DNA of 60,774 bases, filler included, from Hausera hauseri (Eukaryota), in assembly GCA_046269625.1 (NCBI GenBank). It is 11 parts of 11 records of this genome, joined end to end, with 100 filler letters (N's around TTAATTAATTAA, not from the genome) between each part and the next. Parts side by side here need not be neighbours in the genome. Positions count along the whole stretch, not along the records: positions 18,583 to 24,668 come from JBJURY010142647.1; 10 more parts are not named here. One strand, 5' to 3'. Positions within the stretch are counted from its first letter, which is position 1; each line of letters starts with the position of its first letter. The translations under genes and the position numbers were made by a program. Positions 9,218 through 59,706 of the stretch are shown piece by piece. The notes under the pieces were generated by a model. It saw nothing but the letters and a program-made list of their open reading frames with translations. It had not been told where the DNA came from and made no database searches.

Positions 9218-12200
9218 GCATCACGGTGTGACCGACTGTCCGACCGTCTGTCCAATGTCCGTGGGTCCTACGCCACGGTCCGTTACCTTACCACGTCAAC
9301 CACTAGGGCCAACACCGACTATTTCCTTTTTATTCTTCCTAAATAATTGTCATTTTATCACACTCGATACAACGTACTTTATAGACACATATTACTTGCA
9401 CAATTATGTGCTACACTTTGCTAATTTACCTAATATTTACCTCATTTACAACAACCTACCTGTGATTAATGTAAATTTCCGCAATCTTTTTGTTCATTCA
9501 TCCCGTTACGTCATTATTCACATGCACTTTCGTATCCGTGGTGGCATGGATCCTTCGGCCACCATTGACACTACTGACAAAACTAATTCTAAATTATCAC
9601 CTTTCACTTTTCACCAAAAATCAACGACCGTCACCACGCCATCTACTTTCACCACTTATACACCTTCCATTCCGCCATCCAAACACACTTCTCCGTTCAC
9701 AGAATACCTTATTGACCATGAAAAGTCCAGCAAAACCTGGCTTAACTTACAAACTTTGGCTGCAGTCTAACAACATTATTAACCCTTCAGCCAAAGCTTA
9801 AAGATTACTTTACCTCTTACCAAACTGAGTAAAAACTTCTCTTCACGATATTTTAGACATCTTTTAACAATCCGATCCGTACACTCATGTCTATAATGCA
9901 ATTTTGAAACTCACAGAACCGTCTACGGATTCTATAATCTATAGATTCTTCAACGATAACGCTATGGGTACAAAAAAACCATCAGATTTTCTCAGAACCT
10001 TTCTCGCTCATCTTCAAACACTTGGCGTTACAAAACAAAATAATTCCGATCTCTTACGACGTTACTTTTTAAACGCATTGCCGATCCAAATCAGAGCCCT
10101 GCTTACCGTTGTCGAGGAATCGACGGCACTAGATAAGTTAGCCGAACTTGCGGACAAAACGTACGAGATTTTACATTTAAACACAGCCTATCATTTCTGC
10201 AGCGCTTACAGCAAATGACAACACATTAGAATATCAAATTCAACAGTTGTGAGCCGAAAATGCAGCCCTACATAATACAATAAACAATATCAATGATAGA
10301 TTAAATGAAATCTCTTTGTCTCAACAGAAGAGTTCCACCTATGATCGCACATGCTCTGTACCAATAGGTCAGTCACCTTCTCCTGCACTATAGCTGATCT
10401 GTTTCTACCATGATAGGTTTGCTCATAAAGCACGAAAATGTCATTTTGGGTGCCGCTTTTACACCAAAAAGTATCAAGTTAACAACACTATTTGCATCTA
10501 CCACGCAAAATTTAAGAATGAGGCACATAAGTGTATTTTTGGTTGTACCTTTTGAAGCAGCACACAGCATACGAACGTCGGACTTACTGTCTTGTCTTCT
10601 AATAGCCGACCAAGTTTACCACTGACAAAAAGCTAATTCCACCACCAGAGCTTACGGCGAATCCTGGTGAAGGCCATTCATCAGTTTCTACCAGCCGAAA
10701 ACTTTCTTTCGGCGTATTTACCGTAAAGGCAGTAACTACGTTAACAACAACCCGCCACATAGACTTCCTTATAGATTCAGGTGCAGCGATTTCGTTACTG
10801 CCGCTCATCTTCCCAACTTAACACACTTCATCTAAAAATAAGCCTCTATTTACCGCTTCCGGACAACCGCTACAATTTTTGGTGCATGCAGGCTCTTTTT
10901 ACCCTTCCGATATTTCTTTCAGTGTTTCACTGGACGTTTACCGTTGCGAACGTCCAGATAGCCATTTTAGGATCCGACTTTCTTTCGCACTGTAATCTTT
11001 TTGTCGATTGCAAACAACGTTGCTTAACAAGTGGTTGCAATAAGGAGTGATTCGATCACTCCGATACAATTTCGCCTGTTGTACGGGCAAATGCAACTCG
11101 AAATCCTAGTATTAAGAAAACCGTTAAACAAATGTTTTTCTTATAATCATGGTACCTTGTTTTATAAATTACAAAAAAACAATATTTCTGACGATTGGGG
11201 TTTGCACGGCGATGAAAGTGTGGTGATTATCGCCATTTGAACACTTTGACCATAATGGATGCATACCCGCTGCCACTCATTAAGGATATCTTACACCGTC
11301 TCCATTCAACTACCATTTATTCTACCACTGATTTATCCAAAGCCTACCACAAAATTCCTATGGCACTTGAAGATATTGAAAAAATAGCCGTCACTACTCC
11401 TTTTGGCTTTTACGAATATCTGTACGTGCCTTTTGGCCTACGAAATGCTGCACAGACCTTTCAACGCCACATCGATGATATACGTTTTAATTTTCCATAT
11501 GCTCATTCCTATATCGATGACCTATTAATCGTTTCTTCTTAAACCCAACAACACGAAGAACACCTCAGATCAATTTTTTAACTTTTATACCAGCATAACC
11601 TGCAGATTAATTTCGCCAAATATCACTTTTTTCAGAAGCGTGTAAACTTCCTTGGTCACATTATTTCTTCCGAAGGCCACTCACCTCAGCCCGGTCTAGT
11701 TGAAGCGCTAAAATACGTGCAACTACTTCGAACAACAACAGAAATGAGGTGCTTTTGGGGCACTTTTTACTTCGCTCACAAGTATATGTGGTACTGCTCT
11801 GAATTTACCGCACCATTTGCTCATCTCAGTGGTGAAAAAAAACATCAGCCAATACAATGGACCCATGAAATAGTAAACGAATTCGAAAAGCTAAGGAAAG
11901 GTTTACCAACTGCAGAGATATTAGCTTTCCCTAAGCATGATACACAGCTGATCCTCACTACAAACGCCTCCACTACCGCTGTGGGCGCTGCACCTTATCA
12001 AATCTATAAGGGAAAGAACCAGCCTTTGGAGTTTTTTTCATGCAAGTTAACACTTCTTGAAAGTAGGAACTCAACGTTCTATCGAGAATTATTGGCCATC
12101 GTTCTGGCTTTAAAGCACTTCTCCCACCTACTTGTCGCTCGCCATTTTACTTTACAGACCGATTACAAGCCCTTCTTAAACATCATGGCTAGGAAACATT

Positions 12201-13913
12201 TTTCCTCACGCCAAGAACGACAAATATCATATTTTTCGACATTTAGCTTTGACATAAAACATATTAACGGGGTTAATAATTTGGTTGCCGATTTCTTATA
12301 TAGGACGGTTGGTTCGATTAATTTTTAAGTAATCTTTACTCAAGTACAACTTCAACAGAACTAGCCACCTCAGGATATGTTTAATTCTTTTAAGTCTTGC
12401 AATTGTTGACGGCTTGGCTTTAGACACTTCCAAACCAGGTCATTCCGTAATAATTCTCGCACCATCTTTACAACGGCAAGCTTTTAACAATGTACATTCG
12501 CCACACCACCCTGGCTCTAAATACACATTTCGTTTACTCCACCGAAAAATAGTTCGGCCATCAATGCGTTCCGACGTGCAGGCATGGGTTAAGGAGTGTA
12601 TGGCTTGCCAAAAATACAAAACAACTAAGAATTTCAAGCCACCACTGTTCCACGTTCCCTGCACATCACGTTTTAAATCTTTGCATATTGACATTGTTGG
12701 CCCTCTTCCTCCAGACAACGGTCATCAATTCATTCTCACCATGATGGACCGTTCCTCCCGATGGTGAGAAGCCATCCCTCTACGGATCACAAATACCGAC
12801 ACCATATCTGACGTTTTCATTCGTACATGGATTAGCAGGTTTGGATCACCCCGCTTTATTATCACGTACCAGGGTCCACAGTGTGAATCAAACCTGTTCA
12901 AATCCTTTGTCAACCGATTGGGGATCCATCACATACATACTACGCCTTATCAACCCCAATCGAATGGCCTTCTAGAACGTTTCCACCGAAGACTGAAAAC
13001 GTCACTAAGAATCCATACAGAGTCCAACATTAGTTGCACGAATCTTCTTCCATTTGTTCTGCTTGGCTGGCGGAACACTCCGTCTACTTCTACAGAATGC
13101 TCACCCACTGAAGCCTTATTCGGAATTCCTGTACGATCATTATTCGAACTTACTGCCATAGACGACACTCCAGTAGGTGAAACGATACAGACAGCGCAAA
13201 ATAACTTCGTTACAATCAGTAAATATTCGTTATGCAGGTTATTTCACAACCACAAAACATATTTACCTGAAAACTTGTATTCGGCAAAATTCGTCGGGCT
13301 AAAAAATCAAACACCGTGTAATTTTCAACAACGATATTTGGGGCCTTACAAACTCGTCCAATTACACTCCCACAATGCCATTATTTCTAAAGACAGTGAG
13401 GAAATAGCGGTGCATATCAACAACGTAAAACCCGCTTTATTCGTTGACAATAGTTCTCAAATTGAATCTTCTAACCCCTTTTTGACTCCTCCGCCTTTTC
13501 CCTTTTCAGTTCCTACACCTCCTGCATTCCTTTCCATTCCAGCCTCTACAATTGCTCCTTTACCAGAACCTACACCAAACCCCCCGTCTACTAACCTTCC
13601 CACTTTTATTTCTTTTTCTCCTACATTTTCTCCTCCAGCCCATTTTGCGTCTCTGACCGATGCATCACCTTAAGCGACGAAATCTGACATTGTTTTATCT
13701 CAGTTTCTTCTGCAACCAGATACACAGACATTGAATATTCGCAAATCCATCACATTTAGTACATACAGTAAAGAGATTAGCACTGCAGAGGTACAAAGTC
13801 TTATTCACACAAAAACATCCTAGACAGCCTGCATTGTTTCAACATATTTTCTACTTTCTTACCCTCTAGTCTCTTTTGTTCCACGGGAGGGGGGGGGTGA
13901 TGCTGTGCTGTTA
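9218..13913 (+). mobile_element. Ty3/Gypsy element of the Ubl-Gag family, copy 1: Ubl-gag-PR-RT-RH-INT, decayed
   Basis: 5' terminus ...GCATCA ends at 9223. Gag (DPY, KKPSDFL), protease LIDSG (~10770), RT YIDD, RNase H, integrase HPG...C-x2-C, IDIVGPLP, QSNGLLERFHR. PPT at 13885-13897 is followed by TGATGC at 13898. Part of RT appears replaced (about 11030-11240). Confidence 0.9.
9255..9545 (+). CDS. Ubiquitin-like leader fused in frame to Gag (ends IHMHFRIRGG, Gag Met at 9546)
   Basis: The 75 aa from 9321 to 9545 follow a ubiquitin-like pattern (FLFFLNNCHFITLD ~ IFVKTLTGKTITLE; YLIYNN ~ RLIFAG; IHMHFRIRGG ~ LHLVLRLRGG). Confidence 0.65.
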
Positions 13914-18582: not shown

Positions 18583-18957
18583 TCAACAGAACAGGCAACA
18601 ACTTTCCTATTGATAGCCTCAAATTCTTTAATTCGATCACTGAATGCAACAATTTCTGTTGGACAGACAAATGTGAAATCCAAAGAATAAAAAAGGAAAC
18701 CAAATAGCCGCCTTTAAAATCCGATAATTTAATATCTTTAAACGTTTTATTTATTACGGCTGTTCCTTCCAAATCTGGTGCTAGTCTTGAAATTTGAGCT
18801 TTTCTAATGTGGAGATTAAGAGTTCCATGAGATTTTAACTCCTTGGCATATACTGTTCCACCAGAAATTTTGCATCTTTCACAAAGTTCACCGGTTACCA
18901 AATACAGAAGAAAAAGCGCGATAACGCTATTCAAGACGTGTATTGTTTTTCCAGGAT
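18583..18957 (-). pseudogene. PRDX4: Peroxiredoxin-4 5' fragment directly after the 3' terminus of Gypsy copy 4
   Basis: Signal peptide plus GGTVY...KAQISRLAPDLEGTAVI...[10 protein letters not shown], then [14 protein letters not shown] after a frameshift. No intron is seen. Confidence 0.88.
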
Positions 18958-21455
18958 TGTGGGACATCTACTGCCGCGGCACCACATAACCCCCGTGGCA
19001 AAGATGGCATTACGTAAAGCAAAAAAGTAAAAAGGGAAAACTGCGAGAAAAAAACAATGTCTGTGATCTTCTCAGTTTTTGTATGAACTAGACTTTGAAT
19101 CTTAACGTTATTTTGTTCCCTGCTATATTTACTGAAGGTAACTGTCTTGCTTGTTTGACGTTCTGTTTAACGGCTTGCTGAAATGGTTGGAGTGAAGTTA
19201 TATCTTGATTTGATATGTGAGCAAGTTGAAAACTGGTCGGTGTATCACTTAGTATTTCTTAATGATTTTCTGCGGATTTTAGGGTAGCAAGTTGAAGTGT
19301 AGATATATTGCAAGAAGAATTGAAGGAGTCAAGAAAGGTTGGTGCAGACTCAGCCGAGGAATCCGGTGTGTCATTAACGAAGAACGTAGGTTTCATGTTC
19401 ATTATGTGCGCGTTTTGTTCTTTGCCGTTTTGGAGTATTGAAATTGTGTGTGAAGTAATGTTGAGAATTTTAAACGGTCCTAAATAGTGCGGTTGAAATC
19501 CAGATGTTGAGGGATGTTTCAACCACACGAACTCTGCTTTAAAGAGTGAGTCACGTAAATATGTTTCGTCGCCGTGTATTATTTTATAGAAAGAGTCTCG
19601 ACTTAGCCGGACGAAATGATCTTGTGCGGACCTAATGGTTCCGTCAGTCGTTGTGTTGTCTTAATTGGTCAGTTCAAAAACTGCACGAATTGTGGTGCCG
19701 AAGAGTGTTTCAGCGGGTGTGCAACCGATGGTGGTAGAAGGCGTGTTGCGCCACTCGAGTAATTTGAATGGAAGAATGGTAGCCCAGTTCGTATGTGTTT
19801 CGGCTAGCATTTTGGGGAGATTTTAAGAGTTCTGTGAAATCGCTCCAATAAGCCGTTCGGCTGGGGATGGTATGGAGTAGTAGGAATATGGTTCATGCCC
19901 AGTCGATTAACTAAGGATTTGAATAGGTTCGATTCAAACTGGAGGCTTTGATCTGTGATAATATATGGCGGTGAACCAAACCGACTAATCCAAACTCTTA
20001 TAAAGGCATCGCCGATGGAGTCAGTGTAGATGGAGCGCAAGGGAACAGCCTCGGGCCAACGAGATGCGCGGTCCATCGTTGTTAAGACGAACTGGTGGCC
20101 ATTATCAGAAGGTAATGGGCCAACAATATCTAGCTGAACTGATTCAAAGCAGGACGTACAGGGGAAATAGAATAATGGTGGCTTAAGATGCTTAGCTACT
20201 TTGAATTTTTGGCAAGCCATACATTGCCTAACCCAACCCTGTACGTCAGATCTCATTGATGGCCATGTGACGTGACGTTTGAGTAGACGGAATGTAGCCT
20301 TCGAAACTGGGTGATGCAAGGAATGAATATGGATGAATGCTGTTTGTTGAAGAGAAGGTGCCAAAATTGGCAAATGGTGCACAGGTGTCGAAGTGTCCAT
20401 GGCTACGCCATCAATAATTTGGACAGATTTATATTGTTTAAGTATTTCAGTAGAAGGAGGATTCTAAACCAATTGTTCTTTAGAAAAAATAGGCATGACG
20501 CTAATTGCACTAACCGATAGTGACAAAAAATCCGCTATTAAATTATCGGTGCCAGAAATGTGGCAGATTTTAAAGTTGAACGTTGACAAGTACGAAATAT
20601 GACGTTCTTGTCGAAATGATGGATGCTTCATGTTCATTACGTGAACGAGGGGCTTGTAGTCTGTTTGAATGGTGAAAGACTGGGCGATAAGTAAATGTGA
20701 AAAATGTTTTAATGGCTAAAACGATGGCCAGGAGTTCCCTATCGAAGATGGAATAAGGGCAGTCTTGTGACTGGAGCTTACGTGAAAAGAATTCTAGTGG
20801 TTCATTTATTCCTTGAGATATTTGATGGAGAACCGCTCCGACGGCTGTGGTTGACGCGTCGGTTGTCAGGATGAGATCGGCACCAGGTTTTAAATTAGCC
20901 AAGATTTCAACGGTTTTAAGATTATTGCGGAGCTCATCAAACTGGTTTAAAGGTTCTGGCGTCAAATATAAAGGTTTCGTCTTTGGTCTTGCTCCTAGTT
21001 GAGGGAAAGGAGCAGTTAACTGGCCGCAGTGTGGGACATACTTATGAACGAAATGCAAAGCTCAGAGAAAGCTGCGCATATCAGTTGTAGTTTTTGGCAA
21101 TTCGATATTTCGTAATTAGTGAATTCTATCAGGCTGTGGACTGTGACCGTCAGGCGTGATGATGTGGCCTAGGAAGTTGACTTTCTTTTGAAAGAATGTA
21201 CATTTTGCGAAGTTAACCTGTAAGTTCTTGTTGTGCCGGCGTTAAAAAACAAGTTTGAGGTGTTCAGCGTGTTGCTTAGGTGAAGATGATGCTACCAGTA
21301 TATCGTCGATATATGTGTAAGCGAATGGTAGGCCTGAAAGGATAAAATCGATATGCCGTTGAAAGGTTTGGGCTGCGTTCTTTAAGCCAAACTGCATGAA
21401 GGCGTATTCGAAGAGGCCAAATGGTGTTATTATCGCCGTTTTTGGATGTCTTCAG

Positions 21456-22499
21456 TGTGGTTGGCTGACATGTTTACCTTTTGTTGTGAATAGGTCTGAT
21501 CTGGGTTTACGATAATTGTTATACCACTGAGGGAATGCTTTGGTGACATTGATCCATTGCCGCTTTTCGGTGCACCTGATGAGGATATGTAACAATGATC
21601 AACGCCAAAATTCGGATCATCGCACGGTTTAACACCGATCATGAGATTACCGTTCAAAATACGTCCGTTACGCGATTGAGCAAAGACGGCGTGCATTCGA
21701 ACTTCAAATTGAAAATGCATCCAGTTGCCACTGTTGGGTATATATTTCTTCTGAATAACACCAATTTCCGAAAGGTATGATAGAATTAATTGGGATTCGG
21801 TTGATGAATAATTAAAAACTGTCACTCAGTTTTCCATAGTTTTATTTTCGTCTTCTGCCTTTGCATTAAAACGTTTATGACTATTGTAAAAATGACTTCG
21901 TTTTGAACTATTCAATATTGCCGGATACCGTGATAAAACGACTGAAGAATTGTCATTTTGGATCATTTTGCATGTCGGGGATTTATTCCAATTACTGGCA
22001 ATAGGTGGACCATTTCTTCGTCGACTGTGATGGAATGATTCTTGACGTGTGATATCTCTAGATTGACGAGTGTCCATTTGCCTTGTATTCAATGTACTAT
22101 TTGACAATTTTGATTGGTTTAATACGGATTCATTAGCAGATGATAGATTCATTGCTAATAAAAAATTTGGGGAAACGCCCTGCTGTGAATTGGAATTGCA
22201 ATCAACCAAACTGTCATCAAGTGGGGAAAATACATTCTTTCTCATTGTGCGCTCAGAAATTTGAAATCAGCAAATTCGGCAACTAATTACAAAAAAATCC
22301 GACAATCAATTATAAATTTTTTTTGATAATTATAGCACAAAGTACAAAAGTTTACATCACCTCCAAAGTCCGCTAAAAAGGAATAAATTCAACTACTTTC
22401 GAAATTCACAATTTATATTTTTTCCATATTTTAAACAAAATCCATTTACATAACGAGATCCACTTGCAGATCACCAATTGGGTGAATATAGGCACCACA
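21456..22499 (-). mobile_element. Solo-LTR-like unit TGTGGT...ACCACA with 5-bp TSD, carrying NUP35 sequence
   Basis: Splits RT cleanly (VAP|EDIQKTAIITPFG). Flanks are ttcag (21451-55) and tttag (22500-04). It starts with the same TGTGGTGCC as the post-PPT terminus at 18986. Confidence 0.85.
21470..22245 (-). pseudogene. NUP35: NUP35/Nup53 5' fragment (RRM), intron-less, with a premature stop
   Basis: (W>stop)VTVF...GNWMHFQF...NGRILNGNLMIGVKPCDD matches the Nup35 RRM WVTVFGF...GNWMHIRY...DGRIFGESIMIGVKPCID. Confidence 0.88.
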
Positions 22500-24768
22500 T
22501 TTAGGCGCTACTGGTATTTGGTGGTAGGCTTTTTCTAGGTCTAGAGTGGAGTATATTGTAGTTTTATGCAACGAATGTAAGATGTCTTTTATCAAAGGTA
22601 AAGGGTAAGCATCCATGATAGTAACATTTTTAAGTTGACGATAATCGCCGCATAGTTGGAATGTTCCATCTTTTTTGGGTACCACGTTAAGTGGTGAAGC
22701 CCAAGGTGACTTTGAACGGTGGATTATTCCTGCTTGTTGAAGTGACGTGAATTCAGATTGAACTGCTTGTCGGCGGCTTGGTGATAGTGGCCTGAGTTTT
22801 TGCCTGATTGGACGAGGATTCTCGGTGATGATGTGATGGAATGTCGAGCTCGTTGGTCTAAAAGTTGGATCCTTTGTGATCGTGTGGGAGCAGGACTTAG
22901 TTATGTATTGCTGGATTTCTTGACTTAAGGAGGCAAATGGCGTGGTTAGTAAATTAGATGGTTGATCAATGTCAGAACTGGATATGATGGATATTAAACT
23001 GTCTAAATCGTCTTTGTCAACGTTTTCTACTTTGCTACCATTCGATGGAAATATAAAATTATCAAAATCAGTAGTGCTGAAATACATATTCGCATCTAAA
23101 TTAGGTAACGATGTTTTTAATATGGGCCTGACAAACAAGGCAGGCTGCGCAACCGATGGAGAGTTATCTGTATACGTTGAATTTTCTTGACTGTTTGTAA
23201 CTAATCTACTGTGTATACAGTCTACTACGAGGTTGTAGAAAGATAAAAAATCGGAGCCAAGTATTGGTGACTGTGTGTCGGCTACGGTGAAGGTCTAGAT
23301 AAAAACGTCAGAAAAAGGCTGTAACATGAACGAGATTTTGGACGTGCTGCACACACGTAATGCTTGGCCATTGGTTGTATATAATTTCTTGGCTGACGGG
23401 GAAAGAGTTTTAACTTTGGTAGACGAAGGCAGAAGAGACACTGCTGCTCCAGAGTCGATTAAAAAATTAATCGATTGAGTGGGCTTAATTGTTATTAAAG
23501 TGTTTAGAGTAAATACGGTATAAGTACATCTGTTACGGTAGAGATATTTGCCTATGCCAACATGAGCCGAAACATCTGGCAGCTTTATCCGTTTTTTGGA
23601 GGTACAGGATTTAAGTTGTTGGAAACAGTAGGCTGTGGGAAATTGGAACGGCTGACGAAGGTGCAACCGGCAATGAAGTTGCGCGCTTTGGTGTTAAATT
23701 TATTATGATATATACAGACGATGTCACGTCGTCTGAAACTAGGCGCATAAAACCTACATCCTAAACAGAATTTATTAATATTATTTTTGAATTTGGTGTG
23801 ATAGTAACACACTATCGGTCGCGCAAGCGACATAGTAGGTCTAAAATTTTGAGACGAAGTACGGCTATAGCCCGCATCAAAACAATTCCGTCTCGGCATT
23901 GTCAGGGCATCTATTTTTGACGTGAGTAATGAGATTGTCTGATATATATTGGCGTTTTCGGTACGTAAAAATTTATTTGCTTGTTCAAATGTGATATTTC
24001 GTTAATCTGTTGTGTCATTGAAGTTTGTAGCGTAGCGGCGACTTATGGCGGTGATTGTGAATGTAATATTTCGTGACTTTTATCAGCTAATTGTGCCAGC
24101 TTTTGCAGTGTCTCTGTATCCTCGACTATTGTTAGGAGTGCACGAATGTCTCTCGGTAGAGACTGCAGAAAGTATCTGCGCAGTAAATCAGCGTTATTCG
24201 CCTGGTTGACACCCAAAGTGCGCAACTAAGTTAATGCGGTCTGAAGGAATTCGGAAGGTTTTAAGTTTTCTATAGTGTTATCATTAAAGTATTTGTAAAT
24301 AATATTGTCCAAAGACAGCTCCATGAATTTTAGGACTGAATTAAAGAGGGAACTATGTTAGGATCTCTTAATTACCAAAAATCTGAATTAAAAAAATCAA
24401 AAAATCGATCAGAATTCCAGTGACCTTTTTGAATTTGAAACCTTTGAGAGAAATAATGATTTTCCCAATCAACAAAAATGCCAAAAAGTAAAAATCGAAA
24501 ACGAGCATGAAGACCAAGAATCCAGCTAAACAAATTCAAAAACCGCATTAAAAAATAACAATCCAAACCGAAAAAGTTCAAAAAAACAAGCCAAAAAGCC
24601 ACAGAACAAAATTCAAAAAAAACTGTATAGGTCGCTGCTTTGAAATACTTCTGACAAGTTGGAAAGTTNNNNNNNNNNNNNNNNNNNNNNNNNNNNNNNN
24701 NNNNNNNNNNNNTTAATTAATTAANNNNNNNNNNNNNNNNNNNNNNNNNNNNNNNNNNNNNNNNNNNN

Positions 24769-25460
24769 CAATTGGGTATAAGGGTCAGAGTGTTGAAAGA
24801 TGTCCAGTAAGTTATGGATTGAGGCCTTTATAGAGTTTGGTAGAAGATAAAGTAGGCTATGGGCTTTGGATAAGGAGTCTGTGATACCGTTGGATTGTAA
24901 CCAGAGTTGATAAAAGTGGAGCCACGGTTTGCTGGACTTTTCATTATCTATAAAGTAGTCAGTACAATGTGGAGAAGTATTAATAGGATTTTTGTTTGAA
25001 GAATTTGCGTCGATTGAAGTAGGTGGATGATTTGGTCTGGTGTAGTAGAGCATGGGTATTGCCTTTTTTGTGGTGGTCGCCAATTTTGGTGTCAATGGTT
25101 GGCGAAGTGTTCATGCCACCACGGATACGGAGATGTATGTTGAAGCAAGTGTGATTTGAAAAAAAAGGTAAAGTTTCGTTGAGATGTATGATAGTACCGT
25201 GATGGCTAAGGTAAAAGTCGGAAGAACCAAGCAAGGAAGAAATGCAGGTCTGAAAGGTGAGAATGTGTGGATGTTTTGTATTGAGGGTGTAGATACTGTT
25301 GAAAAAAACAAAAATGAAAGTGGGTGCAGTGGTGCGCCTGGGGGCGTGATGTGGGGCCGACTCCGAAGCGCCATCCGACCGACCGCAGCAGGGTTGGCGG
25401 TCGGAACCTCCGCCTCGACGAAGCAGGCAGCAAAATGTGGGATAGCCGAGTTTTCCCACA
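24769..25460 (-). mobile_element. Ubl-Gag Gypsy copy 2, 5' end: 25-bp TGTGGGA...TCCCACA terminus (25436-25460), Ubl (25374-25115) and start of Gag
   Basis: FNIHLRIRGG|MNTSPTIDT, then KPWLHFYQLWLQSNGI...SDPY homologous to copy 1. One frameshift lies in a T-run. Confidence 0.85.
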
Positions 25461-26455
25461 AAGGTGCCGTCATTGCTGCTCGGCATTTCTGAATCGCCAT
25501 CATGACATCTCTAGGCTTAAGTGCATCGCGATAGTTCATAACAATCGATATGAATTTTTCTTTATTTAAGTCGGTTTTAGTTGTTTGGTTACCTTTCAAG
25601 GAGACACCCGTTGTGATTTGTTCGACCAATGAACTGACATACTTAAATCGTGTTTCGTTCAGAATTGGAGAATCTCGCATTGTTGCATGGTGTATGCTTG
25701 GGTACGGTATTGAATTTGTATGTATTTCTTTCAAACCAGAATTCATCGTTGTTTTAAATCGCGCTGACGCTGTAGGTGAGCTAATCATTAGAGATATTAT
25801 TCGATTGAGGTTAGAATAATATGGTGAATTCCTGAACAATAGATATTTACAAACGTCATAAAAGCATTATTAAAAATTATACACAAATCACACGTATCTT
25901 GTGTTGTGACTATGAAATACGCTATTGTTTGGTTCAACGATTGCCGTAGGCATTATCGACCTGGGGAATAATGCCAATTGTATTTGGTTTATTTTGGGAT
26001 AATAAACGGCTAATTGCTGCATTATCAACGTACCAACTCTAGACCCCGTATCGCCATCCATACTGTTAATGACGATAAATGCATGCGAATTATTCGTTTT
26101 TTCAGCTAACTTATATAGCCGCGGTGGGAATAGTCTTAGTAATCGTACACCAGAATTGAGACTTCGTCGAGCAAAACTGTTACCGGAATCTTTACAGTCA
26201 GTAATCATTGATTCTCTACTAGAAATATTTCGACATGCACCAGTCTTAAAATTATTTATGCATGTGGGCTCTGAATCGCTGAATATAGCCCTTGGATTCA
26301 ACTTACAGTGGTTTACTGATTTGGATAATACTGTCGTTCGGTCAAGTTCGCTAGTCAAATCATTATCTTTTAATGTTTTTAGTCCATCTAAATCAGTGGT
26401 GTGTTCAAGACACAATAATTTCCACAGTGCACTGGTGCACTGCACACCAAAATGG
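25461..26455 (-). pseudogene. Divergent alpha-tubulin, intron-less, 3'-truncated and frameshifted
   Basis: GVQ...LWKLLCLEH, PRAIFSDSEPT, TAIVEPNNS, YSNLNRII...TASARF, NYR...PRDV are collinear with alpha-tubulin. Confidence 0.88.
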
Positions 26456-26489
26456 CAGCAGTTGTGTATCCTTCGGTCACCAATTTCAC

Positions 26490-26680
26490 AGACACCAGAC
26501 TGCTTAGCATTAGTTAATACATCTTCAGATGTGTGCAGGAGATTTTCCATTTGTTTCACGGTGAATTATCAAACAGCAGGAACTCGGATATCAACATCAA
26601 GAAGCTGTGCGGCAATTAATTCAATATTCTTGATACCCTCGATTCGAGTCGATTCAATCAATACAGTAACATACCATTTC
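26490..26680 (-). pseudogene. AP3D1: AP-3 complex delta subunit internal fragment
   Basis: WYVTVLIESTRIEG...LIAAQLLDVDIRV...VKQM...GVCEI matches AP3D1 WYISILVELTRLEG...LIAAQMLDVAIRV...VSQM...GICEV. Confidence 0.8.
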
Positions 26681-26825
26681 GTTCAATCGGTTGATTGAAT
26701 CGTATCATTTATCGACAAAAGCAATTCGTATGTCACAGAAATTTTTGCGAAAATGGCCATTAACCATTGACAAATGTAATTAAGAAATCCAGGGCCGGAG
26801 TAGAAAAATGCTTTTGAATTTGCAG

Positions 26826-26913
26826 CGTATTTTTTGTATAATCTGTTCATCTGTTCCAATACAATAAATGTGATGACTGCATGAGGACCTATTCGCAGAT
26901 AATACGGCGTAAA
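26826..26913 (-). pseudogene. SLC25A11: C-terminal fragment of the mitochondrial 2-oxoglutarate/malate carrier, fused in frame after TRMT11 sequence
   Basis: FTPYYLRIGPHAVITFIVLEQMNRLYKK ~ FTPYYARLGPHTVLTFIFLEQMNKAYK. Confidence 0.75.
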
Positions 26914-26914
26914 A

Positions 26915-27830
26915 ATTTTCTGTGGATAATTAACATGACTGTAGTACAGATGTGGTCGATATTCCTTCGTCATGATTTTCAAACACTTCTCCCTTACTCC
27001 ATAAGGTGATCCGTTAGAATGACTTCGAATTTGAAACCTGTCCGCAATATTTTATCCAATTGTGACGAATCACCGATGAACACGTCACCAAAACAGGACA
27101 GAATAGCGTATTGTTAAAAATTGAGTTTTAAACATTTATCCTTCGATCTCCAGACCTCATCTGCCTTTGTGGATTTACCAAGTCCATGTGCGACGTTATA
27201 GTCAATATCTATACCAAAAACGGTAGCACCACAATGCCCAGAAACTACTAAAAAACTGCCAGTGCCAACAGACGGATCCAAAACGACATGGAATTTATCC
27301 ACTCGGCCGAGATGATCCATTAGAAATGATAGTCGAACATTCATGCTGATATTTCCAATGAACTGCCGTTCGGACAATTTATAATTATTAATCACCTCAC
27401 ACCGTTGACTGACTTTAACAAGTCTACCGTAAGACAGTTTGTCCGGCACGTCCACACACGACTTTTGGTTTTTTCGTATGGATAATCAAGAATCAATCCT
27501 AATTCTACATCTGGTTGTTTCAGAATCAAATTGATATTGCTTTTGCATTGTTTATGATTTGCAAATATTTTTTCAATTAAATCGACTTTTTCTTCAATTT
27601 TCAACCTTTTGTGGCGAGTTTCAACATTCGTACGATATAAAAGTTTTTTCGCAATTATGCCATTACTATTCATATCATTAAGTTAAGATATATCAAAGCA
27701 CAATTCTTTCATCGTATCAGCAAATGTCCAAACTAAGTAGGCGCATTGAATCGAAATGGATTTCTGACAACAATTTGTTGACTTTTCGAGATATACTGTA
27801 TGTAAGAAAATTCCCAAAGAATAAAGGGTT
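26915..27830 (-). pseudogene. TRMT11: tRNA m2G10 methyltransferase TRMT11 fragment, intron-less and frameshifted
   Basis: RQFIGNISM...LSFLM...VLDPSVGTGSFLV...GIDIDY, followed by PYGVRE. Confidence 0.85.
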
Positions 27831-33074: not shown

Positions 33075-33160
33075 TGTGGTGCCTACAGCGGCCGGTGCCC
33101 TTTGGCCAGTTTGGTCCCTTTCCGACGCGTCGGGCCCACAGGCGGGCCCCCGATCTTCCG
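33075..33160 (+). mobile_element. LTR 5'-terminus module (TGTGGTGCC plus GC-rich head)
   Basis: About 42 bp near-identical to the inverted copy at 35805-35846 and to 30236-30276. Confidence 0.78.
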
Positions 33161-33229
33161 AATTGAGGATTCAAGAAAAGAAAACGAAACAGACAAAATC
33201 AAACGATAACCCCGGTGAATATCGCTCCA

Positions 33230-33932
33230 TTGAAACAATTATCCAATCATTGGAATTCGTAATCGTCGTGATAATCATTATGGATATATTTCAGTCATAT
33301 TTGTACGGTTTTCGAAAAAATGTCTGCACCTTTGTTAGACATGGGTTGTTGCTGGTATATTGTATAAGCGTCATTGTCAGTATTTACTATCCAGAAATAG
33401 TTTACATTTTAGGAGCTAGACAATTTATTCGACCGAATTTTGCATTGTTTCGTTCGACGTCGATGACAAAACTTTTAATTTCGATGTGCATAACTACCAA
33501 AGACATTCTAAGTGCATTTTTCTTGTTAGCTCTTGGATGATCGGATTTACCATTCGTGGAGTGTCGTTGTTTTTTAGTATGGAAACGTACACTGATGTAC
33601 AATACAATAATTTCTACGATGCGTTCTTCACATTACTGGTACTTCTAACAGCCAACAATCATGATGCAATGGTCGTTGTGTATAACAACAGTCGACTGTA
33701 TTTCATCTTCTTTCTGGTCTACGCATCCATTGGGATGTTTGTGTTCACGAACGTTTTCACTGCGGATATGTTGGTACTACGACGTATTGCGACTAGAGCA
33801 GTTTACGAAGTATTGAAAACTACATCAAAGGATATTGATGAGGATAGCGTGGAATCGGACATACCGCGACGAACTATAACGGATGTACCGATTGCTGGCT
33901 GGCGTAAGACGGCAACACTTGCTTCAGTGTAA
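33230..33932 (+). pseudogene. Two-pore channel (TPC2-like) domain-I fragment, intron-less
   Basis: RQFIRP...; FFTLLVLLTANNHDAM...YNNSRLYFIFFLVYASIGMF ~ TPC pore LLVLLTTANNPDVMIPAY. Confidence 0.8.
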
Positions 33933-44800: not shown

Positions 44801-45530
44801 CCAAAGAAACGCTGCATAATAATGTCCATGGACGGTTCGGTGATCTTTAGGACTGCATTAGAAAGATGTGAATATGGGTCTGGAAGTTGAACGATTTCAA
44901 TGATGTTATGGATGCGGGTTTTGATGCTGTTAGGCAGTAGGAAAAGAAGTTTATGGGCTCTAGTTAGAGCCGGTGATGTTATTTGCTTGCAGCCAAAGTT
45001 GGTGAAATTGCAACCAAGTTTTGCAAGAATTCTGGTTGTCGATGAAAAACTCGGTGCAGTTGGGGAAAGGAGCTGAAGAGGTAATAGGAGAGAGGTTGTT
45101 GGTGGAGTTAGGAGTGGGCTTTTGGAGTAGTATGACAGGTATGGATTTTGTGGTGGTTTTATCCGTGGTGTCAATGGTTGGCGAAGAATTCATGCCACCA
45201 CGGATACGGAGATGTATGTGCAGGCAAATGTGGCTTGATAGAAATGTTAGGGGTCCGTTGAGAGGTATGATAGCGTTGTTATGGGTGAAATAAATATCAG
45301 AAGAATTAAGTAGGTAAAAATGGACGTCCAAAAGGTGGGAATGTGTGGATATGGTGTAGTAAGGGTGTAAATATGTGTATTGTTAAAAAAAGAAAATAGA
45401 AGGGGAAGGAGTGGTGCGCCTGAAGGCGTGGTAGGGCCGACGCCGTCCCCTTGTTTAACTGGTGCTGCACGTTGTGTAGTGGTAATGTTCGATTGCGAAA
45501 CGATTGAAATGTGCGCATAGGAGACCTACA
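44801..45530 (-). mobile_element. Ubl-Gag Gypsy copy 3, 5' end: 56-bp TGTAG...CTACA terminus (45475-45530), Ubl (about 45440-45194) and start of Gag
   Basis: LHIHLRIRGG|MNSSPTIDTTDK, KTWLQFHQLWLQANNI, PDPYSHL...ITEPS; frameshifted. Confidence 0.85.
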
Positions 45531-46710
45531 TCTACCAACAACTGCACATTTACATATATGCGAAGGAATTTCGGGCATTATTTGGACAAATATTTTATCC
45601 TTTAAAGTAAACTGAACCGAAATGATTTCATTGTTTATGAACAAATTCAAATGGGGAGCAATACCATCGGGTGAGGCGAAACCTATTCGACCAATGGTAA
45701 TTGCGGTGTTCTTGTGGAAGGTTTTGGGTGTCGAATTGTTTATAACGGTCCGTTTGTCCTTTCTCTTTAACCTCATAAAAATGGTCTTATCTGCTAGTAG
45801 TGATATTGCCGTTCCTTTGAAACAACAAGATACAAAATACGGTATAACTTTCATCGTATCTTCCACCACCTTCTGGACTCTTTCAGAAAACAGATTAGGG
45901 TCTTGTGCTTTACTATCCCTGTTATCATCATGATCAGTACTTTCGACTGGTAGATCACCGTATAATTTGACAAATATCAGCAAACACAATTCTTCAACTT
46001 CGATCGAAAACTGATACTTCTTATCGTGGTTCTTTGTAATCTGATCATTAGCAACAGCAGCAGTCATACGCACTTGATTAACCACAGACAGTACGTACTC
46101 GTACACGTGACGAATGGGCATATATTTTCGGTAAAGAATCAGCAGACCGTGTAAAATAGTCGACGCTCTCGGAATTGAAATTAAATGTTCTTGCAGTTCC
46201 GATGAAGTTTCTGCTGCCTCTTTGGCGGAAACGAAATGAAAAATAAGTTCCACGCCGATTTCAGCGTCAATAACAATAGGTGCAGCTCGTTCCAATAAGC
46301 ATTTCGGCGTTTGTATGATACTTTTCTTTTTAGTAGCATCAAAGTTCAATTTCACCAGATGACCAGAAATGGTCTTTTTGACCTTAGAAATTATTTTGAC
46401 CACCACCAGTCGGCTGGAATTTGAATCGACAAATGTATCCAATTGGGATAGAAGTTTTTGGTCGCTACGCAATAGTCCAAAAAATTTCGTCAGATTATTG
46501 AGTTTATCTTTGTTGGGCAAAAATTCTGATATGCGTTTGGCTTTTTCTCGCAGTTTAATACTGAGTGCGTTGGGTAGTGCTTTCTCTGATGAAGATGCCT
46601 CCTTCAATAATTGGACCGTTTCACGCAGTAAATTGATTATTATGACTTGGTTTTTGAACATATAATGAATAGTTTTAGCACTCTAAATATTCGATGTAAT
46701 ATCGCTGCGT
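45531..46710 (-). pseudogene. PDS5: PDS5 cohesin-regulator internal fragment, intron-less
   Basis: LRSDQKLLSQL, KCLLERAAPIVIDAE and IGRIGFASPD ~ PDS5 LGDDEKLRSQL, KFLLERIAPVHIDSE and LGHISMLAPD. Confidence 0.82.
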
Positions 46711-46711
46711 T

Positions 46712-46870
46712 TGTGGCAGCAGTGTTTGAGAAAATTCTGCACTTGACGAGGATGGGCGTACACTCAATCAGTGTGTTGTCGTACTCCGCATGATTCGCAT
46801 TGCACCATACGCCGGTCATAGTACGGATATTCGCAGATACAATCAATAACGACATCGCTACTGGTGCTAC
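46712..46870 (-). pseudogene. PHD-finger fragment (PHF20/MLL5-type)
   Basis: VIDCICEYPYYDRRMVQCESCGVRQH. Confidence 0.75.
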
Positions 46871-47179
46871 ATTCCCGTTTCTCCGAGCCCGATAACTTCT
46901 GCGATGTTTTGCACGATTTAAATGGTGCTCTATAGATGGGTGTATAAAGTGTCAGAGAACGCAAATAAAGTATGAAATCTGGATTATAGTTGGAGTCACT
47001 ATCATCTGATGAGTCTGTACTGCAATCACTGTATTCTGATGCAGATACACACAGATCGTCGTGGACTTCAACAACCTTTATTTCTGGGTGGATAGTCATT
47101 TTCATTCAAATACTGTTTGCGCGGTGTACAATTTGTAGATGTATTATCCGTGTCCTGAGAACTGTTCAGGTCACATGGA

Positions 47180-48032
47180 CATAAGTCGAGCGAGGTGGAA
47201 TCTGTCGAGTCATTATACCTAGTAGAAATGGATGATCTATCGACGTTGGAATCATTAAAATAAGTGTGAAGTAGCGAAAGTATTGCCAAAAACAATTCAT
47301 GGGCATCGTGCTGATTGTAATCAGCCAAATCTTGGACGTGAGACCAAATTATATAGAGGAGATTTGTGAGTACCAATGGAGTTTGAATGGGTTTAAAGCT
47401 TTCGTGATTATGCGAATCATTTCGCATGCCAGGCGATCTCGACTCTGTTTAGTATTTGGACACCGATGCAAATCTAACAGGAGATAGTCCCGTAACCCAG
47501 GAGTACGAGTAAAAGCCTGAACGATAACATTGAGGAAACAGGTGTTGCCCATATTAACAAGCCATTTGGTCAGTTTATTACTATCGACCGGTGTAACGAA
47601 TTTCAATAGATAAAAATCTTTCATTTCAGGACGCCATGCTAAATCGAATATGACAAAATTGGGGAAATAAAGTTTACGGCATTGTTGAATAATTTCCCCG
47701 GAATATCCATGATATTGGACATCGCAACATTCATGGCGATAGACTTCACCATGTTGGAGTAAAACGTTTATTGCATGGCCTTTCTCTGTTGACCGCTCGC
47801 GAATGTGCCAATGTTGCCGAAAACCGGAAAAAATACAATGAGCGCACGCCATCACGTCAGAATAATCGGGGCATTTGAAATTCGTGCATCTTTTACAGTT
47901 GAAAAATACTTTTAATTTAAAGCCCTGATCTGATAAGGGAAATACGATCGTGCTAATTAAATTGCGAATTGCCAATTTATTTGAACGATTTTCAAGAAAT
48001 CTCGTTAAATGAACGCATGCCATAATTATCAT
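47180..48032 (-). pseudogene. USP22: USP22/nonstop 5' fragment (ZnF-UBP plus Cys box), intron-less and frameshifted
   Basis: MACVHL, ACAHCIFSG...H, LVNMGNTCFLNVIVQAFTRTPGLRDY, LADYNQHDAHELF. Confidence 0.88.
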
Positions 48033-48536
48033 GCAATTATAAACAATACTTGCAATATGTAACAGAAAATGTTACCTTGTTTTGTTGTGACACGTAAAGC
48101 ACTGAGAAAACAAATAGTTCGTCGAGTCAGGCCGGAGGCAGGTCTGATACCAATTTATTGTGTTAATGTAAATAAATTCCGGTCTCGATCGCAAAAAATA
48201 GACTGAGAGAATGTATCAATAATCAATTGATACGATTATTGTAGTGTCAAAATGGCAATTTATCAATAAATTCGAATTGAACAATTTTCAAAATGACCAA
48301 ACAGATAATCTAAATATTCAATATAGATGAGATAAAATATATAACCGATGTGATTCCAAAAATAGCGTTTCTTTTGATTAACAAATGGAAAATGTATTGG
48401 TTTCAAAATAAATAGATATGAAAATCCAAAAATAACNNNNNNNNNNNNNNNNNNNNNNNNNNNNNNNNNNNNNNNNNNNNTTAATTAATTAANNNNNNNN
48501 NNNNNNNNNNNNNNNNNNNNNNNNNNNNNNNNNNNN

Positions 48537-56988: not shown

Positions 56989-59706
56989 CACAACGACTTG
57001 AAAATTGTGTATCGGTAAATTGAAAATCCGAATAATAAGAAATGTAGTCTATATGCCAGCTAAGCTAAATCCGAAAAATCTTTTAAATTGGCCTATCCCG
57101 TTTCGATGAATTATTTGGAGAAGTTTTAGCATGGCGAAGTGGTTCCAGTGTTCAAAATTACCAGTTTTAATACCCGGATTCGAAAATGCAAGTGAACTCA
57201 TATTTAATACATTACTATACATACCTGGGGAATAAGTACAAACCACAAAGCGAATAAATTGTAAGGAATGTAAGGAATTTAAGGATAAAAGAATGTTTTA
57301 TTTTTTGTACGGAATTTTTACCATCGTTTTTAATGACGAAAAAACACTTTCAACGGGATTGATAAACGGAGAATATGGAACTGAATTGATTTCACAAGCT
57401 TAAGAATGCTAAAATTTACATACTTATGGCTTTAAAGTTTACCAGTTAAGTGTAATTATAGCATTTATTGCTTGATACATATTTCAAATTTTAGTTGTGT
57501 TCACTTGAATTTTCATTTGGTGCACTTGCATTTTAATATCGTTCACTTGAATTCCTTAAATTTGCTTTCAGACTGAAAAGATCGTAAAAGATTATTCATC
57601 CGAGGTCACTAAGCTATAGTTTCACTTTAAATAAAGATTTATGGTTAGATTTTTTGGAAATTTGCTTTTATCCTCTACACAATATGTAATTTTTAGAAAT
57701 GGGTAGAAATTCAAAGAAGAAGCGAGCTCAACTGGACTATATAATGAAGTCGTGGATTAAGAACAAGCAAAAAGAAGGACACCAAGACAAAGACAAGAAG
57801 CACAACAACAGCTAAGAGACAGAGCCTGCAGGGTTGGTTCAATTCATTCAACCGATCAATTCACCTAAAAAGCACGAGCTATTGGATTTACAAAAGTTCG
57901 GTTTAAGAAAATAGCATTAAAAGCTCTACAAAATGCCCGTGTTGCTAATTTTATTTGTAAAGGAAATCTTTAAAAGAGGACGCAAGCGTCTCAACATTTC
58001 CAAAAATTTCAACATTTCTCCAGAAAAATAATTTGGGATGAAACTTAGTGCTAGAATATCAAATATTGGTCTCAAAAATGAACCATTGCTTAAAAGCCTC
58101 TTGGAATGTCACTTTCATCCGAGTACAAGCTTGAAATGGTCCGAAATAAATTTGAAGAATTAATTCAGTATGAAAAATCTCTATCTGGGGAGTTTGTGCT
58201 CAAAAATATTGTCAATGTGTTGGAAGAAAGAAAAAATGACTTGGAATTTCTGAAGCTGAAGACAAATTTATTTTACTCTCTCTTGATAAAGGACGGCAGA
58301 AATTTACAGCAACAGTTTCTTCTATCTACCATCCAACCAAGCCCTCTTACTATAATTTTTTACCAATTGTCTGATGGGAAGGCTCGGACTCATATGGTTG
58401 TATCTCCAAATCAGCACGCCAAGATCAATATAATGAGCTTCAACAAACCAGATATAGAATTTTCTGGGGTAGATTTATCGTTTATAACAACAAACTACGG
58501 ACTTAGCTGTGGAATGAACTATTCATGCTTATGGTGTGACATTACTTCCCAGAAGGGCCTATGGCTAATGCAAATGTTATTGACTTCAAAAAGCATCAAG
58601 AAAGAACAGAGAAGATTGAGAAAGAAATTTCTATAAAGTGGCCTAAGAAAGCTTAGAAAAAAGAGAGTCTGCTTGATATTCCAAAATATCATGTTGTTCC
58701 TCCAATTCTACATGGAAAGATTAAAGTCGGCAATGGTCTTTTTATGTTGCTTTATTAAGAGGAGTAATTAAACGATGAATCTCAAAGCGTCTGCAAGTCT
58801 TGAAAGTTCGATATAGACCGAAATCTCGTTTTCACAGTGGTCATATTAAACGTTTGTTTAAGGCCATTCCTAAGTTCAATCAAATTCAGTTGTCAACTAA
58901 ATCTCAAAAAATCATTGAAGTCTTTTCCGAATTTGATAAATGGGCCACTGTGATATCTTCAACAAACACAAACCTTTCTGACTCAGAATTTTCAAATATT
59001 GATTGTAAAGCTGAACATGCCGTCAACACGGAATGCTGTCAAACAGCCAAGATGGTTAAGGGGCCGCAGGAAGTTGGGGTTTTGGATCTAGTCCCATGGT
59101 TCATGTGATACTTTCTCATCTCGGTTCTTTTATTCATACACAAATTCCTCTGTGCCGTCTCAGAAGAAGTCATCGAGGCTGTACATAGCAAGTTACCAAC
59201 CGAGATGACCAATCACAAAATGAATCGAGACTCTCGCTTACAAAACGCTTTGAAGTATATGACTGTGGACGTCCTTCTTTGCGACAGCAATAAAATTATT
59301 ACAGGCCATTTTGTAAACATTTTTCTTTATAACCTGTTTTGTTTGTTCTGAATCTTGTAAGGAAGATATTTTAAATCATATTCCTAAACATTTCAATTTG
59401 TTATAAATTTATCATTACTGGTCATAATTTGTCACAGAAAAACACAACTATCACAAAGAACACTGGAAAAAATTCCTTTTACTAATGCCACTGGCTGGAT
59501 TGGAACCCGGGCCTTAACACTGGTAATTATGACCCCTGGAGCCACTGCGCCATTCTAAAATTTCTCCGTCTAATTTCTCGAAAGTGGATAGGCCAATTTA
59601 AAAATTTTTTCGGATGTAACTTAGCTGGCATATAGGCTACATTTCTTATTATTCGGATTTTCAATTTACCGATACATGATTTTTACATAACTATCAAGTC
59701 GTTGTG
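56989..59706 (+). mobile_element. Transib/Chapaev-like (RAG1-related) DNA transposon with about 200-bp imperfect TIRs starting CACAACG; transposase decayed
   Basis: CACAACGACTTGA...GTATCGGTAAATTGAAAATCCGAATAATAAGAAATGTAG (56989-) is inverted at 59706-. Transposase motifs: D...YG....YSCLWC, PPILH, SEEVIEAVH. No TSD seen. Confidence 0.75.
59486..59560 (-). pseudogene. tRNA-derived (Gly-like) sequence within the right TIR, with a more decayed mirror at about 57125-57195 (+)
   Basis: A-box TGGCGCAGTGG, B-box GGTTCCAATCC, and a 3' half AGGCCCGGGTTCCAATCCAGCCAGTGGCA resembling tRNA-Gly. Confidence 0.55.

Follow-up and report, generated by a model that had tools for sequence, protein, structure and literature searches.

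A dead insertion carrying the front of NUP35 in a flatworm gypsy element is likely a solo LTR

A unit of 1,044 bp that interrupts the reverse transcriptase (RT) of a gypsy element in Hausera hauseri is a dead insertion, flanked by a target-site duplication (TSD) and carrying the front of the host gene NUP35. The unit is likely a solo LTR, and that LTR was probably built from a host mRNA. The analysis covers a 60,774-nucleotide stretch of joined parts of assembly GCA_046269625.1 (the window), together with X1, an independent sequencing run and the one run listed for this DNA, in which contig depth is not equivalent to copy number.

The unit occupies positions 21456..22499 on the minus strand, beginning with TGTGGTGCC and ending with ACCACA, so that TGTGGT...ACCACA forms a perfect terminal inverted repeat of 6 bp, the kind of short TG...CA repeat found in Ty3/gypsy solo LTRs. 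It is bordered on the plus strand by TTCAG on the left (21451..21455) and TTTAG on the right (22500..22504), the two differing by one substitution. The minus-strand pol of the host gypsy lies on either side, with the RT N-terminus (Pfam RVT_1) upstream of the insertion at 22505..23294 and the YIDD motif downstream at 21062..21450, where the host RT has a frameshift of its own near 21440. Both flanks align end to end with a relative in another part of the window that lacks the interruption, exactly one 5-bp copy standing between them, and by this alignment the RT is split without loss of a base. Three X1 contigs (depth 887) skip the unit and contain a single TTCAG-type site, and because this empty site fixes its length, the TSD is 5 bp. 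The TSD on its own would not be significant, since chance predicts a similar count: the window contains 239 TGTGG..CCACA pairs, of which 5 are flanked by a TSD with at most one mismatch against 4.6 expected, and the four pairs other than the unit are at chance level. Coordinates, flank alignment and empty site agree with the precise RT split by a TG..CA unit and 5-bp duplication that had been noted, and the insertion is real.

NUP35 coding sequence, in sense orientation and 3'-truncated, makes up 790 of the 1,044 bp (76%) and spans the ATG through the RRM (21457..22245, minus strand, 263 codons). The frame matches human NUP35 in a PDB search (E 1e-13), the N-terminal motifs align, and the Nup35 RRM domain (PF05172, RRM_Nup35) is recognized by Pfam at 21616..21849 on the minus strand (E 4.7e-17). 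Over the 263 uninterrupted codons the longest insertion seen only in the window copy is 2 aa, and no joints are seen in X1. The identity and extent first given for this sequence, and its reach to the terminus, are upheld, but codon 140 (21826-28) is an in-frame stop and the C-terminal FGW helix is missing. An HMM of the C-terminal tails of relatives did not place the truncation point. The NUP35 cargo is dead, and nothing here implies that it has a function. Among 30 coding differences to X1, 12 are synonymous against an expected 21-27% (p 0.014-0.083), an excess that pure neutral decay from a single capture does not fully explain. A metagenome scan returned one distant locus (47% over 35 residues) and no copy, and a word-based homolog search with the NUP35 frame scored none of 156 candidates.

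The remainder of the unit lies ahead of the ATG. The first ∼35 bp (22465..22499, minus strand) are a high-copy LTR cap, with a bin depth in X1 of 2993 compared to 85-566 across the rest of the unit, and at its end, 22465, three X1 contigs diverge. The following 219 bp (22246..22464, minus strand) are AT-rich (28% GC) and likely represent NUP35 5' UTR or upstream sequence; since their X1 depth (103-134 at the least-overlapped sites) is near that of the coding part, the AT-rich sequence travels with NUP35. No gag-pol, primer-binding site (PBS) or polypurine tract (PPT) is found inside the unit, and all of the cargo is within one TG..CA pair. The tail lacks high-copy depth in X1, so a family-specific tail, if any, is shorter than ∼30 bp; a YCAACCACA tail motif, chosen post hoc, occurs 7 times against 1.25 expected, some of these occurrences falling within the coding sequence of RT and polB. 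The secondary structure of the cap is no better than that of shuffles (z -0.14), the first 20 bp of the unit have no match among viral contigs, the two Rfam matches (E 1.9 and 3) are far below gathering, and no tRNA was detected in the window.

These features bear on the origin of the unit. The original prediction described a short ORF end followed by AT-rich sequence and NUP35, read as the 3' end of one gene joined to the 5' end of another through read-through. The ORF end consists of 16 open codons, a length that is ∼46% likely by chance ((61/64)^16), and it overlaps the high-copy cap. The supposed 3' end of a first gene is itself this shared cap, and no such gene end is found in the unit. 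Under read-through rebuilding, a very-short-LTR element just upstream of or inside NUP35 would have given a chimeric spliced transcript, and upon reverse transcription flanking host sequence would have joined the new LTR. Sense orientation and the retained 5' end are accounted for in this way. A mini-LTR of ∼35 bp would end as the cap does, with CA at position 35, the point at which the three X1 contigs diverge, and genomic DNA from upstream could be the source of the AT-rich part, which has TATAAA at unit position 83. However, no second cap or old LTR stands ahead of the tail: head and tail of the unit have no significant similarity in direct or inverted orientation (p 0.23 and 0.52, respectively). 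A read-through origin is considered unlikely, and the arrangement at the 3' end of the host gypsy weighs further against it.

At 18968..18996 on the minus strand, the polypurine tract of the host gypsy, GGGGGTTA, is followed by the start of its own 3' LTR, TGTGGTGCC, the first 9 bp of which (at 18986) are identical to those of the unit; the two caps have only these 9 bp in common. Directly beyond, at 18583..18967 on the minus strand, is peroxiredoxin-4 (PRDX4) coding sequence from its ATG, frameshifted and cut by the contig end, and identified by PDB Prx4 (E 5e-11) and Pfam AhpC-TSA (E 7.9e-7). The layout of the unit, a cap followed by the start of a host gene, thus stands behind the PPT of a gag-pol element at the 3' LTR position. 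The PRDX4 ATG is 19 nt inside the LTR start, and together with the other sisters this would require of the read-through model repeated sense insertions at gene starts. Further uninterrupted, sense, N-terminal pieces of host genes are present in the window, from USP22 (from residue 1-4), alpha-tubulin (from residue 11) and TPC2 domain I, the last behind a cap. The PPT-plus-cap pattern has 2 matches against 0.09 expected and the cap pattern 6 against 0.56, both patterns having been chosen after the data were seen. A 29-bp "mini-LTR", TGTGG..CCACA, at the host gypsy 3' end was considered but discarded for this copy, since the CCACA falls in the first codons of PRDX4. In three gag leaders the U5/PBS junction of the mobilizing family could not be located and no tRNA-Trp PBS was recognized by eye, the 5' end of the host copy being off the contig. 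A ubiquitin-like gag leader was also considered and rejected, having neither Pfam nor PDB support.

The position of the caps also bears on a Pack-type non-autonomous DNA transposon, in which genomic NUP35 DNA would have been moved by a Ginger-like transposase. The TGTGG ends fit the TGTNR pattern common to Ginger and gypsy, and TDD-4/5 give 5-bp TSDs (PMC2836005, in the passages cited here). In the same passages, metazoan Gingers give 4-bp TSDs, compared to 5 bp here, and the terminal inverted repeats (TIRs) of Ginger1 span ∼40-270 bp, those of Ginger2 50-180 bp and those of TDD-4/5 260-297 bp. The perfect inverted repeat of the unit is 6 bp, with 16 of 40 terminal bases matching, and with its 5-bp TSD the unit misses the defining features of Ginger, the association that had been named in advance as evidence against an LTR origin. 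The integrases detected in the window (Pfam) are parts of pol genes that also encode RT, and the start sequence of the unit follows polypurine tracts. The Ginger-like explanation is largely refuted by the PPT-adjacent caps, and we regard it as most improbable.

Contigs of X1 indicate that the unit start recurs in other contexts. Loose ends were counted for 6 of 39 rows, and exits are given as minimum values. At least 17 contigs exit at 22499-22501. From the unit start, at least 5 contigs continue into a run of C, which on the element strand reads as a G-rich PPT and resembles the PPT at ∼13880-13899, and at least 10 enter mixed flanks (agreement 0.46); the PPT-bearing contigs need match only the cap and not the NUP35 part. 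At the other end, at least 2 contigs exit exactly at 21456, where the tail gives way to unrelated sequence. A NUP35-part unitig of 126 bp has a depth of 62.9, and the other 7 listed pieces have depths of 4-7; because these include some that are only 81-89% alike, several paralogous copies of the NUP35 unit are indicated, and the unit looks multicopy from these sequences. X1 may be a pooled sample in which the deep unitig is the native NUP35 gene, though such divergence at depth 4-7 argues against alleles. The earlier description of a solo LTR with coding sequence of the host as its filling is supported by the PPT-adjacent sister cap, the PPT-like flanks and the signs of multiple copies; its read-through origin is not supported.

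We slightly favor an origin in which reverse transcriptase switched templates onto a host mRNA and so rebuilt the LTR of a flatworm Ty3/gypsy element, of which the unit would be a solo copy. NUP35 mRNA would have been co-packaged with element RNA. The growing minus strand, with no more than a very short element end on it, would have jumped at the first strand transfer into the NUP35 coding region ∼20-40 codons before the stop. It would then have copied to the 5' end of the mRNA and returned to the element just past the polypurine tract, giving an LTR composed of cap, 5' UTR, NUP35 5' coding sequence and a short att tail. Elements with such an LTR may have multiplied, one entering the RT of another gypsy with a 5-bp duplication, after which LTR-LTR recombination would have left a solo copy that decayed. 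Template-switch retroposition is described as producing partial, more strongly 3'-truncated retrocopies with later re-amplification (PMC5131818, in the passages cited). No identical LTR pair around gag-pol was seen, the X1 pieces being too short to show one.

The lack of a paired copy would also be expected if the unit had never been one of two LTRs, that is, if a cap-headed linear cDNA of NUP35 mRNA, whose ACCACA end arose by chance or was grafted on, had been integrated directly by gypsy integrase and now moves as a short non-autonomous piece. The tail that is not high-copy, the coding frame that reaches the last base and the two further X1 exits exactly at the tail, which indicate movement as a unit, are compatible with such direct integration. 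Double-stranded cDNA synthesis by LTR elements, however, needs a PBS and a PPT for priming, leaving a unit with neither no priming route, and the same layout occurs at a true 3' LTR position (18986). Direct integration is accordingly judged quite unlikely.

A wider reading, held tentatively, is that of a gypsy family with LTRs shrunk to a 9-35 bp cap and a tail of less than ∼10 bp, for which 5' ends of host mRNAs are the routine bridge for first-strand transfer and the LTRs of whole lineages are amplified host gene fronts. In its boldest form, which is doubtful in the extreme, the joint is made at a trans-spliced leader. The stretch in common at the unit start is 35-37 nt and continues as ...GCATG in three X1 contigs, and spliced leaders of parasitic flatworms are given as 31-36 nt and ending in AUG (PMC12582326, in the part cited); against this, the window copy lacks the ATG and other caps lack the stretch, of which the window contains no second match. 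Should it be possible to rebuild LTRs from the fronts of host mRNAs, the R-region homology generally regarded as necessary for strand transfer would be dispensable in this gypsy family, and with each replication round host coding sequence could be duplicated, stacked and spread. LTR finders would miss such LTRs, which would be mistaken for gene paralogs. Because both ends and the TSD are present and the empty site was observed independently, the unit gives exact joints to map.

Comparison with known systems is limited to the passages cited from each source. Ginger1 and Ginger2 share TGTNR termini made for a gypsy-like integrase but have long TIRs and, in animals, 4-bp TSDs, both absent from the unit (PMC2836005). 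The Cassandra, Helenus and Ajax TRIMs also have host-derived sequence in the LTR, a 4-5-bp TSD and LTR machinery, but theirs are fixed 5S or tRNA pieces giving a Pol III promoter (PMC10886601), whereas the cargo here is variable protein-coding sequence that fills three quarters of the unit and has no Rfam match. The CsRN1 clade (CsRn1, PwRn1, AgCR) comprises flatworm gypsy elements with TGT...ACA ends and a PPT before the 3' LTR; its CHCC gag motif, CX2HX9CX3C, is degenerate in the host copy (C-X2-H-X9-x-X3-C, third Cys absent), and its 4-bp TSD, tRNA-Trp PBS and ordinary LTRs of 146-381 bp among the rows listed (PMC2582038) differ from the 5-bp TSD, the tRNA-Trp PBS not found and the host genes at the LTR position here. 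In the titles and abstract openings of the open-access literature searched, protein-coding mRNA pieces filling gypsy LTRs are not described. LTR-mediated retroposition in metazoans (Tan et al., 2016) likewise places partial, more strongly 3'-truncated host coding sequence in an LTR-element context, with multi-gene chimeras, further amplification and template switching as the proposed route, but in those elements a portion of the internal ORFs, between the LTRs, has given way to the retrocopy (PMC5131818), whereas here the cargo lies between the TG and CA of one LTR-like unit, behind a PPT-adjacent cap. The unit would represent a known kind of gene capture at an unusual place, inside the LTR.

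The reverse transcriptase (RT) of a decayed Ty3/gypsy element with RT, RNase H, and integrase (the host gypsy; contig 18583–24668, minus strand) is split by a 1044-bp minus-strand insertion at 21456–22499, TGTGGTGCC...CCAACCACA, which contains the front of NUP35 (the NUP35 unit) and is flanked by TTCAG and TTTAG. This near-TSD is weak evidence on its own: the window contains 239 TGTGG..CCACA pairs, and 5 of them are flanked by repeats with no more than one mismatch, compared with 4.6 expected. The splitting of the RT is confirmed: the unit flanks, aligned separately to an uninterrupted relative at ∼11220–11570, leave a single 5-bp copy and nothing else between them, and in X1, an independent sequencing run (the sole run listed; 0.19 of words), three contigs (depth 887) bypass the unit with one target site present. 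This empty site is incompatible with a 4-bp duplication and is strong, independent evidence for insertion, and the insertion is real. The host gypsy RT carries its own frameshift near 21440, and the gag is apparently interrupted by ∼300 bp of AT-rich sequence (24340–24640, minus strand). The 11 contigs of the window are joined by artificial N44-TTAATTAATTAA-N44 spacers (letters checked at 3 of 10 joins), and order across spacers is therefore meaningless.

NUP35 coding sequence accounts for 790 of the 1044 bp. The claim that it runs from the ATG through the RRM stands, given an RRM_Nup35 match (Pfam, E 4.7e-17), matches of human NUP35 structures to the unit frame (E 1e-13), and N-terminal motifs that align with NUP35 relatives, the ATG lying 23 residues upstream of the FLPxFL-type motif, a spacing that has a median of 27 across 44 relatives and that, judging from sequence, is the one expected of a NUP35 start. 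The claim of an open frame does not stand, as there is a single in-frame stop at codon 140, a site at which both X1 contigs covering the codon have a different letter. The coding sequence is uninterrupted, with window-only insertions of ≤2 aa; it lacks the C-terminal FGW helix, and 55 residues follow the RRM compared with a median of 81 (range 52–160, n = 53 of 59 full-length relatives drawn from 150 matches). Flatworms make up 4 of the 10 high-ranking NUP35 relatives chosen for look-up. The cargo is dead.

The 3′ end of the host gypsy reads GGGGGTTA|TGTGGTGCC at 18986, that is, a polypurine tract (PPT) followed by a short start, the cap, whose first 9 bp are identical to the start of the NUP35 unit; the ATG of a peroxiredoxin-4 coding sequence comes 19 nt after the cap start, so that a genuine 3′ LTR position, behind gag-pol, is taken by cap plus host-gene start. 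Matches to the cap pattern, picked post hoc, number 6 in the window compared with 0.56 expected, one of them inside the pol region, and the PPT-plus-cap pattern, also picked post hoc, has 2 compared with 0.09 expected. Comparison of X1 with the unit plus 24-bp flanks covers 239 contigs; among the 6 of 39 loose-end entries listed, exits at the unit start comprise 10 contigs with mixed flanks (agreement 0.46), 5 with a G-rich tract (element strand) like the PPT at ∼13880–13899, and 2 further contigs with a similar C-rich consensus, and 2 contigs exit at the opposite end, the tail, at exactly 21456, with unrelated sequence beyond. For these contigs a match to the unit end suffices, and the NUP35 part need not match. 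A Ginger-like TIR element, named in the original prediction as what would overturn the LTR reading, is very unlikely: the unit has a perfect terminal inverted repeat of just 6 bp, a 5-bp TSD, and a cap found behind a PPT at 18986, whereas Ginger elements have TIRs of ∼40–300 bp and, in animals, 4-bp TSDs (PMC2836005).

The unit had been proposed to be a solo LTR rebuilt by read-through, joining one gene's 3′ end to another's 5′ end. The former amounts to 16 open codons, expected by chance in 46% of cases (arithmetic), on the high-copy cap, and is not upheld. Had the unit arisen by read-through or from a host promoter, an old LTR or a second cap would be expected within it, and its head and tail show no significant likeness (p 0.23); a version with a ∼35-bp mini-LTR survives because the shared stretch terminates in CA at unit position 35. 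On sequence grounds the unit is most likely a solo LTR with an mRNA-derived NUP35 front, and the simplest route would be template switching in first-strand transfer. Short strong-stop DNA would jump onto co-packaged NUP35 mRNA, and the minus strand would extend to the mRNA 5′ end and re-enter the element directly behind the PPT; once it had integrated with a 5-bp duplication, the element would be reduced to a solo copy by recombination between its LTRs. Such switching would make the cargo sense, 5′-complete, 3′-truncated, and directly behind the cap, as observed for NUP35 and peroxiredoxin-4. It also fits the pieces of USP22, tubulin, and TPC2 at other places in the window, which are N-terminal and uninterrupted.

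X1 depth is ∼3000 over the first ∼35 bp of the unit and 85–566 elsewhere, with no rise at the tail, although summed contig depth is not copy number. At the least-overlapped sites the AT-rich 219 bp have a depth of 103–134 and the coding part 77–155; because these are about equal, the AT-rich stretch is likely part of the NUP35 cargo and not of the cap. One 126-bp coding-part unitig has a depth of 62.9, whereas the other seven pieces listed have 4–7 and several are only 81–89% alike, which suggests a young, near-identical subfamily together with older copies. Of the 48 majority differences to X1, 40 are listed; setting aside the stop site and 9 sites outside the coding sequence leaves 30, of which 12 are synonymous compared with 21–27% expected (p 0.014 or 0.083, depending on transition bias), a weak excess that would follow from repeated capture from the functional gene or from some selection.

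Three further TGTGGTGYC caps, at 33075–33932 (+), 35846 (−), and 30276 (−), share a GC-rich head of 45–110 bp that is absent from the NUP35 unit. One is followed by the TPC2-like piece, and one splits a polinton-type polB gene and is followed by a thioredoxin-like frame, TXNDC11-like by eye, for which a Pfam search returned no match. Where 5′ LTRs would be expected, ahead of the gag leaders of three gypsy elements, there are host frames in sense orientation: TRMT11-like and alpha-tubulin frames (25114–27500, −), USP22 and a 458-aa frame (45306–48071, −), and a frame at 8727–9220 (+). Of 13 matches to the USP22 piece, all 12 that are named are trematodes (identity 31–66%); together with the flatworms among the NUP35 relatives, this makes the source of the DNA probably a flatworm, a long-branch placement that falls short of an identification. 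The leaders (∼9520, ∼25100, ∼45180) have a common CGTATCCGTGGTGGC ahead of the ATG, translated RIRGG-M, which we take to resemble the ubiquitin C-terminus; Pfam and PDB searches gave no support for a ubiquitin-like leader, and a U5/PBS junction could not be placed in three gag leaders. Elsewhere in the window, a 689-aa frame (1875–3944, −) opens with a signal-like segment and contains repeats of 76 aa (228-bp period) with KR pairs between them, a predicted layout like that of a secreted peptide precursor; a Pfam search gave no match. Inverted repeats at 57001–57184 and 59500–59683 (184 bp each, 86% complementary, 2.3 kb apart) are probably those of a DNA transposon.

No Rfam family matches the NUP35 unit. 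The mobilising family has a degenerate CHCC-like motif that resembles the one in CsRN1 but is not assigned to it because CsRN1 has a 4-bp TSD (PMC2582038), compared with 5 bp here; Saci2-like elements likewise have 4-bp TSDs (PMC12471100). Spliced-leader background is provided by PMC12582326 and PMC9911081. Among the open-access papers listed, judged by title and abstract start, none describes gypsy LTRs filled with pieces of coding mRNA; small-RNA host sequence inside LTRs is already known (PMC10886601). The NUP35 unit works in the manner of LTR-mediated retroposition (PMC5131818), except that there the cargo replaces the internal ORFs, whereas the NUP35 cargo lies inside the LTR-like unit.
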